DNA of 64,000 bases from Thermoproteota archaeon (GTDB lineage: Archaea; Korarchaeota; Korarchaeia; Korarchaeales; Korarchaeaceae), in the NCBI GenBank assembly GCA_027491435.1, contig JAOZFG010000004.1:160001-224000 (forward strand), written 5' to 3'. This document shows, one piece after another, positions 33,748 through 36,713 of the stretch. The notes beneath the pieces are model-generated. The model had not been told where the DNA came from and made no database searches. It saw nothing but the letters and a program-made list of their open reading frames with translations. The first letter of the stretch is position 1; each line of letters opens with the position of its first letter. The position numbers and the translations under genes are program-made.

Positions 33748-34215
33748 ATGAGGAAGCCCAGACCTCCAGGAAACTTCTCCTTCGTAGACGAGTGGGTCGC
33801 CGGGTCGGCCATGCTGCACGAGCCCGAAAACGTAGACTGGATCTTCTCCAAATCGATAAAGGCGATCATATCTCTGGATCCAATGATACCAGATGAGGTC
33901 GTGGAAAGGATCAAGGAGCTTGGGATAAAGCATTACCTGAAACCAATAGTAAATTTCTCGGCGCCCACATTGGAGCAGCTAGAGGACATAGTCGACACCA
34001 TAGTGGAGCACGTGAAAAAGGGGAAGAAGGTGCTGGTTCATTGCTGGGCCGGTTGTGGCAGGACAGGCACGGTCTTGGCTGCCTACCTAGTGTGGAAGGG
34101 TATGGACGCTGACGTAGCGGTTGCTAAGCTCAGGAGCCTAAGACCTTGTTCCATAGAGACTCAGAGCCAACTGGATGTGGTCTGGTATTACTGGAGGGTT
34201 AGGAAGGCTACCTGA
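33748..34215 (+). CDS. Dual-specificity/PTP-family phosphatase
   Basis: VHCWAGCGRTG (HCX5R); LRPCSIETQSQ. Confidence 0.92.
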   Translation: MRKPRPPGNFSFVDEWVAGSAMLHEPENVDWIFSKSIKAIISLDPMIPDEVVERIKELGIKHYLKPIVNFSAPTLEQLEDIVDTIVEHVKKGKKVLVHCWAGCGRTGTVLAAYLVWKGMDADVAVAKLRSLRPCSIETQSQLDVVWYYWRVRKAT

Positions 34216-35629
34216 TTATCCTCCACTTGGTTCCCTGGGGGGTATCCTGAAGCTCTATGCCCAGGTCCCTTAACCTTCCTCTTATCTCATCCGATAATTC
34301 GTACATTCTCCTCTGCCTTAGCTGGGACCTCACTTCCAACAGAAGCTGTACTAGGGACTTCAGCATCACCGAATCGACGGCCCTCTCAACCCTTATCCCG
34401 AGAACGCTAAGCATTTCGTTGAAGGTTGAAAGGAGGATCCCCTTACCCTGCTCGCTTATCTCCCCTACCTCAGAGACGTAAGCGTTTGTCAACCTGATTA
34501 GCTCGTACAGGTTGGCCAGAGCTTCAGGAGTGTTAAAGTTATCCGCTAGGGACCTAAAGAACCTGTCCCTCAGATCCTTAACCTTATTTAACAGCTCAAC
34601 CTCTGCATTCCCCACTTCGGAGTTGACCTCCAAGTCATAGAGGTTGTCGTAAGCGGTCTTTATCCTCTGATAACTGCTCCTGGCCTGATCGAGGAGTTCC
34701 CACCTGAAGTCCATGGGAGATCTGTAGAAGCTGGAGATCAGGAGGAGCCTCACGGGCTCCGGGCCATATTCCTGGACCACGTCCCTTATCCTTATTATGT
34801 TGCCCAAGGACTTGGACATCTTCTCTCCCTTGATGGTCAGGAGCCCTATGTGAATCCAGTACTTCACGAAGGGCTTAACTCCAGTGTAACTCTCGGCTTG
34901 CGCTATCTCGGCCTCGTGATGTGGGAAGGCAAGCTCTATAGCGCCCCCATGTATGTCGTATTGCTTCCCGAAGTGCTTTATGGTTATGGCCGTGTCCTCT
35001 ATGTGCCACCCCGGCCTCCCATAGCCCCAGGGAGACTCCCAGCCGAACTCGTCCTTTGGTCTCTTCCTCCAGAGGGCGAAGTCGCCGGGGTTCCTCTTGG
35101 TGGGATCCGGCTCTATCCTGTGAACCCTCAGCTCCTCTATCTTCTGCTTGGACAGCTTGCCGTAGTCTGGAAACGTTGTTATATCGAAGTAAACCCCAGT
35201 CTCAGTCTCGTAAGCGTGTCCCTTCTCCAGCAGAACCCTTATCTGGTCCCATATCTCCGGCAGGTAGTCTGAAGCCCTGGCGTACAGGTTCACGCTGGTG
35301 ACGTTAAGAGACTCCATGTCCTCGTAGTAAAAGCTCTCGTACTTCCTGGCCAGCTTCAGCGGGTGCATCCCCTCCTCCTTGGCCCTGTTAATTATCTTAT
35401 CGTCTACATCCGTGATGTTCACCAAGTAGAAGAGCGAGTACCCTGCCCACCTTAGGTACCTGGCCACCGTGTCGAAGAACGTGAATACCCTTCCATGGCC
35501 TATGTGGGAATAGTCGTAGACAGTGGGGCCGCACACGAACATGAAGACCCTCTTACCGTAGAGGGGAACGAACTTCTCAACACGGCCCGTGAGGGTGTTG
35601 TAAACTCTCAGGTCAGCAAAGGCCGTCAC
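34208..35629 (-). CDS. cysS: Cysteinyl-tRNA synthetase (main frame; probably entered by +1 frameshift from ATG 35633)
   Basis: CGPTVYDYSHIGH, DFALW, GRPGWHIE, FPHHE, KMSKS. Confidence 0.97.
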   Translation of the reverse strand: MTAFADLRVYNTLTGRVEKFVPLYGKRVFMFVCGPTVYDYSHIGHGRVFTFFDTVARYLRWAGYSLFYLVNITDVDDKIINRAKEEGMHPLKLARKYESFYYEDMESLNVTSVNLYARASDYLPEIWDQIRVLLEKGHAYETETGVYFDITTFPDYGKLSKQKIEELRVHRIEPDPTKRNPGDFALWRKRPKDEFGWESPWGYGRPGWHIEDTAITIKHFGKQYDIHGGAIELAFPHHEAEIAQAESYTGVKPFVKYWIHIGLLTIKGEKMSKSLGNIIRIRDVVQEYGPEPVRLLLISSFYRSPMDFRWELLDQARSSYQRIKTAYDNLYDLEVNSEVGNAEVELLNKVKDLRDRFFRSLADNFNTPEALANLYELIRLTNAYVSEVGEISEQGKGILLSTFNEMLSVLGIRVERAVDSVMLKSLVQLLLEVRSQLRQRRMYELSDEIRGRLRDLGIELQDTPQGTKWRIIR

Positions 35630-35645
35630 CCATGAGGGTCACCAC
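35613..35645 (-). promoter_or_regulatory. cysS leader ORF MGDGLC* with SD GTGGTGA, internal SD GGGTGA and candidate +1 frameshift site CTT-TGC-TGA
   Basis: GTGGTGA-CCCTC-ATG GGT GAC GGC CTT TGC TGA; the +1 frame continues TTT GCT GAC CTG AGA GTT TAC AAC into CysRS. Confidence 0.75.
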
Positions 35646-35693
35646 GAAGGTCCCCCAGATCATCTTTTAAACTTAACCCAGGATCCTAACTCC

Positions 35694-36713
35694 GTGCCAG
35701 ACCTCGCCAAGCTTCTAAAGTACTCCCTGCTGTTAGTGGCCCTGCTGTGGTCTGTAGCCGAGCAGGGAAGGTCTTTGCTGCCAGACTACAGGAGAGCCTA
35801 CGCTAGCCTGGTTCTAACGGCCCTTCTGTCCGCCTACCTATTCTTGGAGGGAGGCCTATCCAAGGTGGAGTTCGGCAAGGTCCTGATAGCCTCTTACTTG
35901 GCGCCCTTAGCCTCAGTCCCTCTAGTGCTGTTAAGGGGCCAACGAGGTCAACGAAAGGAGCAACAAGAGAGCAGCAAGAAGCTAAGCTTACTGGAGTTGG
36001 CCAGTTCATCAAGCCTGATTTTGTGTAAATCAGCCAGGTTGGCCAACGGAATACTGGGGGACCTTGCAGCCGAGCTGTCTGAGACTAGGAGGGTCGTCTT
36101 GGTAGACTGGTTCGGCAATCTAAGGGAGAGGTTCGGGGAGTACAAGCTGGCCCTTCCCAACGAGCTATGGCTATGCGATCCAGGTCACCTGGATGACGCC
36201 TACTTCCTCATGGTCTCCGACTTGATCTCCTTGTTCGTCGATGCTAACCCCTCTCTAGTAGTTCACGTGCTTAAGAACAGGGACTTCGAAATCCTCGAGG
36301 ATGCCAAGGTACCACCCGAGCTTAGGATAATTCTGGAATCCCTGTTCTCGCCGAACTCGATTCCCCTCTTGGAGGCCCTGCCCGAGTCTGCTGGGGTACT
36401 AATAGTAGATGCATCAGGCCTGTCGCCTCAAGCTAAGGAGGTGCTCTCCCTGCTAGTCCTGTTACAATCCGCAGCCTACAGAAAGAGGGACTTCATCCCC
36501 TTAACCCCTTCAATATCGCCCTGGGAGCAGGAGAGGGGCAAGGAGGTCCTTAGATGGCTGGCCAACTCCCTAGAACCTGGAGGTGGAATTATAGCCTCCA
36601 AATTCGTCTTGAAGGAGTACGCAAAGGAGTTCAGTTACGTACTTCAATGTGAGGGCTGTCAAGACGGCCTGAAAGTCGGTCAGTGGTCTTTATGTCCTCA
36701 CGAGAGGGTATAG
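35694..36713 (+). CDS. Membrane protein with a degenerate HerA/VirB4-like ATPase domain
   Basis: Three N-terminal TM helices; RVVLVDWFG and VLIVDAS strands but no intact Walker A. Confidence 0.5.
   Translation: MPDLAKLLKYSLLLVALLWSVAEQGRSLLPDYRRAYASLVLTALLSAYLFLEGGLSKVEFGKVLIASYLAPLASVPLVLLRGQRGQRKEQQESSKKLSLLELASSSSLILCKSARLANGILGDLAAELSETRRVVLVDWFGNLRERFGEYKLALPNELWLCDPGHLDDAYFLMVSDLISLFVDANPSLVVHVLKNRDFEILEDAKVPPELRIILESLFSPNSIPLLEALPESAGVLIVDASGLSPQAKEVLSLLVLLQSAAYRKRDFIPLTPSISPWEQERGKEVLRWLANSLEPGGGIIASKFVLKEYAKEFSYVLQCEGCQDGLKVGQWSLCPHERV

Follow-up and report, generated by a model that had tools for sequence, protein, structure and literature searches.

Recoding at CUU-type sites is known from bacteria and yeast: the release factor 2 (RF2) gene, prfB, shifts at CUU_U with re-pairing through a first-position G:U pair, and the Ty1 site consists of a CUU placed before a slowly decoded sense codon (both from the portion of Atkins 2016 available to us). 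For Archaea, the accessible text of a 2021 review of recoding gives a single demonstrated frameshift, a -1 event in fucA1 that has no known purpose, and names only the haloarchaeal virus HSTV-2 for +1 shifting (PMC8211752). Upstream of cysteinyl-tRNA synthetase genes (cysS), leader attenuators with Cys codons, termed uORFC-8-2, are described from 145 examples in Rhodobacterales in the available part of Brewer et al. (2021; PMC8632094). Here we analyze a stretch of 64,000 nucleotides from a Candidatus Korarchaeum genome (Thermoproteota archaeon; assembly GCA_027491435.1, contig JAOZFG010000004.1, positions 160,001 to 224,000; hereafter, the window), in which cysS is preceded and overlapped by a six-codon open reading frame (ORF) ending in CTT TGC TGA. 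Judging from the sequence and its conservation, we think it probable that cysS of this Korarchaeum is expressed via a programmed +1 frameshift at CUU_U, with the Cys codon that follows serving as the sensor.

All positions below follow window numbering, and both cysS and the mini-ORF lie on the minus strand. A TATA-like box, TTTAAAA (35665..35671), ends 31 nt 5' of ATG 35633; a gap of 19 nt separates it (35671-35665) from the Shine-Dalgarno (SD) sequence GTGGTGA (35645-35639), which is followed by the 5-nt spacer ccctc and then by the ATG, and the GTG codons within GTGGTGA share the frame of this ATG. The zero-frame mini-ORF that opens here, ATG GGT GAC GGC CTT TGC TGA (35613..35633), encodes MGDGLC followed by a stop and is one base out of frame with cysS. 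Within it, an SD-like GGTGA (35626..35630), located 4 nt 5' of the slip codon, contains the annotated cysS start codon, GTG 35629-35627. The proposed shift site, CTT_T GC (35616..35621), comprises the putative P-site codon CTT (Leu, 35621-19) and the putative A-site sensor TGC (Cys, 35618-16); the +1 codon at this site is GCT (Ala, 35617-15), and the zero-frame TGA (35613..35615) would be the point at which unshifted ribosomes are released. The cysS body continues in the +1 frame from GCT 35617 to a stop at 34208 (34208..35617). Taken as an ORF, the cysS frame spans 34208..35629 (473 aa), and GTG 35629 is its sole canonical in-frame start, since an in-frame TGA lies upstream at 35641-39 and the next canonical start is only the Met of RVFMFVCGPT. 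Thus, a short zero-frame ORF with its own start and a body in the +1 frame are both present, and the +1 frame of the window retains GTG 35629. When CTTT is read as a single step, conceptual translation gives MGDGLADLRVYNTLTGRVEKFVPL. The initial annotation, from which the frameshift proposal comes, had described ATG 35633, GTGGTGA, TTTAAAA, CTT TGC TGA and the position of GTG 35629 inside GGTGA, and was accurate on all of them.

The product, whose closest proteins carry the name Candidatus Korarchaeum, is a class I cysteinyl-tRNA synthetase (CysRS) that matches both tRNA-synt_1e (Pfam PF01406; E 7e-109, residues 20-317) and DALR_2 (PF09190; E 1e-8). The source genome, a metagenome-assembled one (43 contigs, 99.5% complete), holds a single full-length copy of cysS, one gene each for tRNA-Leu(GAG), tRNA-Cys(GCA) and tRNA-Val(GAC), and no SepRS above the cut-off (68 bits vs cut-off 380.65); with cysS present as a single copy and no SepRS, CysRS is the only evident source of Cys-tRNA(Cys). 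The 3' end of 16S rRNA, read from three genomes of the same genus because the 16S gene of the window genome is not assembled, is GGATCACCTCC, and GGTGA is therefore a genuine SD core. Among ORFs of at least 100 codons in this genome, the spacing from GGTGA to ATG peaks at 4 nt (108 cases), followed by 5 nt (43 cases), and that from GGTG to ATG peaks at 5 nt (209), followed by 6 nt (138). The upstream GGTGA lies 5 nt from ATG 35633 and 9 nt from GTG 35629, which bears out the earlier remark that this ATG has its SD at the 5-nt spacing seen for other genes in the window.

According to the mechanism that we propose, ribosomes would initiate at the SD-led ATG 35633 or, if the mRNA is nearly leaderless, possibly at an in-frame GTG 9 nt upstream of it (22 nt after the TATA box), and would read five codons, Met-Gly-Asp-Gly-Leu. 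Once CUU occupies the P site and UGC the A site, two outcomes could follow. If Cys-tRNA(Cys) arrives fast, UGC would be decoded, UGA would come next and a useless hexapeptide would be released; if the A site stays empty, peptidyl-tRNA-Leu(GAG) would re-pair from CUU to UUU, GCU (Ala) would enter, and CysRS beginning MGDGLADLRVYNTL would be made. The efficiency of shifting would then be expected to respond to cysteine supply, with low enzyme or low charged tRNA giving more shifting and more enzyme, i.e., a negative feedback loop, given that no source of Cys-tRNA(Cys) other than CysRS is evident. The GGUGA that lies 4 nt before the slip codon may pair with the 3' end of 16S rRNA and would probably hold or pause the ribosome at the site. 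NUU codons are read by a G34:U wobble, and the elements needed for re-pairing are in place: CTT_T is found in 17/17 Korarchaeum orthologues together with the tRNA-Leu(GAG) gene, and GTT_T, which would re-pair less well, in 18/18 genomes of the second clade described below. Moreover, decoding of the A-site codon would depend on the product of the gene itself, given TGC at every locus, only one cysS and no SepRS. Production of the enzyme by +1 shifting seems to us quite likely for this gene family, whereas for the additional role of the shift as a Cys-tRNA sensor we would put the chances only slightly above even; our confidence in the statement on the window gene that opens this account lies between the two.

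The resemblance to bacterial prfB, as far as the available descriptions of that gene go, extends to the short zero-frame ORF, the body in the +1 frame, the CUU_U site and the upstream SD-like element, and also to an A-site codon whose decoding would be tied to the gene's own product and to strong nucleotide-level conservation of the site. The two genes differ in that the cysS sensor would be a sense codon, UGC, with feedback acting indirectly via charged tRNA, in an archaeal host; in that the zero-frame ORF has 6 codons in cysS and 25 in prfB; and in that the SD-like element of cysS stands at a normal 4 nt, while the sister clade has GUU_U and a stop that is not adjacent. In E. coli prfB the SD spacing is shortened to 3 nt. 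The likeness to prfB that the initial annotation claimed for the CUU_U site holds; the internal GGTGA, at 4 nt, lacks the shortened spacing.

Yeast Ty1, ABP140 and EST3 (CUU_AGG_C) share with this locus a peptidyl-tRNA-Leu that slips one base from CUU while a slow sense codon waits, with no need of a downstream structure (Atkins 2016, available portion); unlike in cysS, a rare Arg codon is the slow one, the synthetase of the tRNA itself receives no feedback, the slip is to UUA rather than UUU, and the hosts are eukaryotic. The accessible text on uORFC-8-2 (PMC8632094) likewise describes a tiny ORF with Cys codons before cysS, proposed to sense Cys-tRNA(Cys) via the ribosome, with more CysRS made at low charging, but this is a separate upstream ORF (uORF) that has two tandem Cys codons in a hairpin with an intrinsic terminator, and it works by transcription attenuation; the Korarchaeum cassette has one Cys codon and no conserved structure, and its mini-ORF overlaps the coding region and would be joined to it by a change of frame. 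As in Saccharolobus solfataricus fucA1, an archaeal cellular gene split over two frames and expressed by ribosomal frameshifting, the coding sequence of cysS would be divided between frames, but fucA1 uses a -1 shift on A_AAA_AAT and has no known sensor (PMC8211752, within the text available). Finally, mammalian and yeast antizyme genes provide a precedent for an early +1 shift that is both sensor and effector of a feedback loop (PMC8211752; Atkins 2016; both in part), although they sense polyamines at a stop codon, employ a pseudoknot or other modulators, and are eukaryotic. A full-text literature search confined to article bodies, without supplements, returned no report of frameshifting in any cysS or archaeal synthetase gene. 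The term 'tRNA synthetase' is absent from the portion of Atkins (2016) covered, and the part of the GeneTack paper covered (PMC3711429; main text, without the tables of fs-genes) contains no 'cysteinyl' and a single 'tRNA synthetase' cluster, which is classed as phase variation.

One argument for translation through the mini-ORF comes from conservation within Candidatus Korarchaeum. The N-terminal region of cysS was recovered from 17 of the 21 genomes of the genus, the other four being 70-86% complete, one of them with the gene cut by a contig end. In all 17 orthologues the cassette GGTG-N6-ATGGGTGA-N4-CTTTGCTGA is invariant at the nucleotide level, and so are each of the ATG, GGTGA, CTT_T, TGC and TGA; the 17 also keep a TTTWTAA box, which ends 30-31 nt before the ATG, and the in-frame GTG at -9 relative to the ATG of the mini-ORF. 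The out-of-frame ATG, located 4 nt before the GTG start, lies at the favoured 5-6 nt from the SD in every case, compared with 9-10 nt for that GTG. This constancy stands against pairwise CysRS identities of 63-96% (median 76%) and against the rest of cysS, where a single codon is kept at only 13 of the 219 invariant residues with degenerate codons (Ala 0/14, Phe 2/14). The invariant blocks of the cassette measure 8 and 9 nt, and no invariant run elsewhere in the coding region is as long as the 9-nt one. Synonymous positions are therefore fixed in both overlapping frames, a constraint that goes beyond the needs of a protein started at GTG alone. In 15 of the 17 orthologues there is no canonical cysS-frame start upstream of the GTG (the exceptions are an ATG at -24 in L006 and a GTG at -21 in L008), and cysS as seen in other Korarchaeota genera has a plain ATG or TTG start two to six codons before [LI][KR][IV]YNT. 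As a control, conservation in the 5' regions of ileS from 18 genomes of the genus is limited to the TATA box, GAGGTG and the start codon (mean column identity 64%), with no invariant block; the frozen cassette is therefore not a general trait of 5' ends in the genus. The comparison with related cysS genes thus favours the frameshift reading put forward in the initial annotation.

RNA-based explanations of this conservation were also considered. A conserved RNA structure was rejected, as RNAalifold yielded for the 17 sequences a consensus of -4.36 kcal/mol and no compensatory change in the cassette. A T-box or other curated RNA leader was dismissed because no Rfam covariance model matched at E up to 1 on either strand of window positions 35300-35900 (0 matches). 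A leader-peptide attenuator of the trpL or uORFC-8-2 type was set aside in view of the one Cys codon, the overlap with the coding region and the lack of conserved structure.

The design is not confined to one phylum. In the order that holds Zestosphaera tikiterensis, 18 of 325 genomes carry this type of cysS at E 1e-160 or better, and all 18 combine a zero-frame start, GGTGR-N4-GTT TGC and a zero-frame stop 0-10 codons after the TGC; each of the 11 close metagenome loci shows one of the two forms of the cassette. At every locus of both clades, GGTGR-N4-[CG]TT is kept and the A-site position is occupied by the Cys codon TGC. The 4-nt distance of GGTGR persists although in L032, L200 and L311 the mini-ORF start lies three codons further upstream.

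The most telling case is that of two Desulfurococcales genomes, L034 and L035, in which the main frame reads GTG ATG TAG TTT GCC. Their mini-ORF, ATG GGT GAT GTA GTT TGC CCA GCT TAA, encodes MGDVVCPA and a stop, the 470-codon body is intact, and a +1 shift at GTT_T gives MGDVV-AQLKVYNTLT. Since TAG follows the GTG, no canonical start can yield the conserved N-terminus in these two genomes; only a +1 shift can. In the same subgroup, four protein clusters have their start called at the internal MFVCGPT, as gene callers do when no start is found; identity to L034 is 99% for one of them, and the other three are 88-89% identical to L034 or L035. Initiation at the GTG regardless of the upstream ATG, which had been named as an observation that would overturn the frameshift, thus cannot make the enzyme in L034 and L035, whereas in the window the GTG frame is still open. 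Across loci, the GTG frame has a codon for Ala, Ile, Val, Asp, Thr or Met, or a stop, immediately before TTT. N-termini of the form xxFA.. are common to CysRS of Zestosphaera and other Desulfurococcales, and F-A (TTT GCN) is present in all 84 closest protein clusters, none of which has an in-frame fused N-terminus. A separate observation concerns P0086, a 472-aa Zestosphaera-type CysRS known as protein only, which begins MGLRIYNT and has no F-A; deleting the shift cassette in frame after ATG GGT would give such a start, and P0086 might have arisen in this way.

Cassette-bearing cysS genes are 59-64% identical between the two phyla, compared with 43-54% identity to cysS of other Korarchaeota genera. 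Because the identity across phyla exceeds that within Korarchaeota (at most 54%), these values suggest that cysS was transferred together with its cassette between Korarchaeum and a small group of Desulfurococcales. We also note a contig filed as 'Candidatus Bathyarchaeota archaeon' (L036/L124) with an exact Korarchaeum-type cassette and a CysRS 64% identical; it comes either from a mixed bin or from a third lineage holding the gene.

The cassette is also rare enough to be set apart from background. It occurs once in full in the genome (3.28 Mb, both strands), where GGTGR-N4-[CG]TTTGC has 7 matches and GGTGA-N4-CTTT 23; among all of these, only cysS combines, at the start of a gene, a short zero frame with a long +1 frame after it. 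A degenerate 36-nt pattern derived from the cassette matched 17 of the phylum's 43 genomes, every one of them from the genus of the window, and none of the 22 genomes of nine other genera, while its reversed control had 0 matches in the 43 genomes. In the phylum of Zestosphaera the same pattern matched one of 401 evenly sampled genomes, namely the seed genome itself, and the cassette type of cysS is therefore rare there. By these counts the arrangement is real and far from chance.

Several points weigh against frameshifting as the route to the enzyme. A GTG lies inside GGTGR at every locus, its frame is open in 17/17 Korarchaeum and 16/18 second-clade genomes, and public records annotate the GTG start (e.g., P0050); direct initiation at GTG, alone or alongside shifting, could therefore account for the protein in the window. 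The ileS gene of the genus uses a GGTG 9 nt from its ATG, which weakens the argument from spacing against the GTG, since a functional SD at 9 nt means that the upstream SD of cysS could reach GTG 35629 as well. In the second clade, TTT is immediately preceded by a main-frame ATG in four genomes, and two read GTG ATG GAG TTT; these genomes could start normally. The stimulatory role proposed for GGTGA is uncertain because 4 nt is the ordinary SD-to-start spacing; GGTGR-N4 is fixed at all loci and complementary to the 3' end of 16S rRNA, yet the motif also contains the GTG. GUU_U would be expected to re-pair worse than CUU_U, with a first-position C:U mismatch. There is a single Cys codon and no downstream stimulator, and TGC follows automatically from a T before GCN, so that it is informative only because TTT is invariant and never TTC. 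Finally, ileS and valS of this genome are without an analogous sensor: nothing obvious was seen at the valS-like gene, and a 16-codon ORF before the ileS-like gene, MKCLGQAEDVIQGVQP followed by a stop, with GTT ATA before the main frame (L284 1434-1484, contig C16), was rejected as a chance occurrence, as it has not been conserved among 17 relatives, where a plain SD and ATG stand in place of the TTG start of this genome.

In the alternative that fares best, CysRS starts ordinarily at GTG 35629 without any frameshift, and the mini-ORF acts as a conserved uORF that regulates this start by competition or occlusion, perhaps in a Cys-dependent manner. Such a model, which we regard as unlikely, accommodates the GTG kept in all loci with an open frame in 33 of the 35 genomes, the MT.FA.. 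N-termini in the databases and the 9-nt SD spacing in use for ileS, and a functional uORF alone would also explain the invariant TTT, GCT and TGA. Against it, the GTG is indistinguishable from the SD-like GGTGR, and the residue before TTT tolerates even a stop. In L034 and L035, the TAG comes right after the GTG, yet both the cassette and the intact 470-codon body are kept. Moreover, stalling at UGC would place the ribosome over the GTG, which lies 9 nt upstream of the P site, and scarce Cys-tRNA would then be expected to lower CysRS rather than raise it; in addition, a uORF without frameshifting offers no reason for a strict NTT_T before the Cys codon in both clades. Hence, among the readings considered, a +1 frameshift, as the initial annotation had it, appears the best supported.

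Archaeal repressors often bind 31-50 nt downstream of the TATA box, which is where the conserved blocks of the cassette lie. A transcription regulator or an RNA-binding protein might thus recognize the blocks as DNA or RNA, or they might form a small RNA structure, with the reading frames incidental; G[GC]TGA does occur twice, and RNAalifold pairs GGGTG with CACYY 30 nt downstream. We nevertheless rate this as highly improbable: the predicted fold is weak and has neither compensatory changes nor a match in Rfam, the second clade keeps exactly the translational features (an in-frame start, the GGTGR-NTT TGC distance and a zero-frame stop) and not the remaining sequence, and the cassette accompanies cysS across two phyla despite different neighbours. 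An explanation by artefact or decay, whether through misassembly of the T run, a pseudogene or a uORF present by chance, has nothing in its favour beyond the fact that the window genome is metagenome-assembled; it has a negligible chance of being correct and is already contradicted by the comparative data, since the extra T recurs in 17 genomes of the genus, 18 of another phylum and 11 metagenome contigs, the body is intact and in single copy, and the reversed-control pattern has no match; the sequencing insertion once feared in the T run is excluded, the layout being the same in every independent assembly examined.

If the shift takes place, cysS would be the first archaeal cellular gene with a programmed +1 frameshift and CysRS the first synthetase shown to be under such control in any domain. 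Autoregulatory +1 frameshifting is known as a device but would be new for both. The shift would constitute a natural sense-codon analogue of the RF2 circuit and a conserved, obligatory shift in an essential gene. To our knowledge, the regulation of aminoacyl-tRNA synthetases in archaea is essentially unknown, T-boxes and leader-peptide attenuators being bacterial devices. Databases would then give a wrong or truncated N-terminus, starting at MT.FA.. or at MFVCGPT. The two readings differ in the N-terminal tryptic peptide: for this genome we predict (M)GDGLADLR after a shift vs (M)TAFADLR from the GTG start, and for K. cryptofilum-type genes (M)GDRLADLVVFNTLTR vs (M)TVFADLVVFNTLTR.

A related layout may extend beyond the two clades. 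We classified by eye 79 further cysS loci from the order of Zestosphaera, chosen as the best-scoring and not at random (40-57% identical to the N-terminal part of the query): 28 have GGTGR-N5(6)-[C/A/T]TT TGT G, 27 have [T/C/A]ATTGTG, 2 have TATTGTA and 22 have neither. In the first group (L207, L214, L219, L222, L226, L229, L235, L238, L239, L245-L247, L249-L255, L259, L260, L262, L264, L266, L268, L276, L279 and L282), TGT belongs to the frame that precedes the main one, and the main frame itself often meets a stop in the TGA of GGTGA. An alignment of 14 loci shows stronger conservation of the block GGTG-AWAAAC-NTTTGTG-TC, where N is C, T or A, than of the coding sequence that follows, and in NTTTGTG loci the TATA box ends ~22-25 nt before the ATG or GTG that opens the TGT frame. 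The block is in keeping with the NUU_U pattern of the cassette and suggests leaderless mRNAs that start in the wrong frame and slip at NUU_UGU; a simple rival is an ordinary GTG start served by an SD that lies 9 nt before it. That the Korarchaeum cassette belongs to a widespread and undescribed archaeal mode of tRNA-charging sensing, with a +1 shift at a 'hungry' cognate codon in the 5' end of the synthetase mRNA, is at present a tentative idea, and we would sooner bet against it than for it; if it held, sense-codon frameshift sensors would be the archaeal counterpart of bacterial T-boxes and attenuators.

In the second group, [T/C/A]ATTGTG stands before the presumed GTG start of cysS, and its TGT overlaps the start in another frame; it comprises 27 of the 79 loci (L205, L208, L209, L211-L213, L215, L218, L220, L223, L225, L227, L228, L230, L231, L233, L237, L240, L241, L248, L256, L261, L263, L271, L277, L278 and L281), and the motif is also found in L021, from a Korarchaeota genus other than that of the window. 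This start context is conserved across classes. Three members of the group, L205, L211 and L212, have a 15-codon third-frame ORF, MVCRCCLLCCVCITR or MVSRCCLLCCACTTP followed by a stop, which lies ~50 nt before and across the cysS start; with its 6-7 Cys codons, it looks like a poly-Cys leader peptide in an archaeon.

On the other side of the putative cysS promoter, the window contains a divergent ORF of 339 aa (35694-36713, plus strand) without a Pfam match, which begins 60 nt from the cysS mini-ORF. Its GTG 35694 is located ~26 nt from the center of the near-symmetrical TTTAAAA box, as in a leaderless mRNA, and this box may serve cysS and the divergent ORF in both directions.

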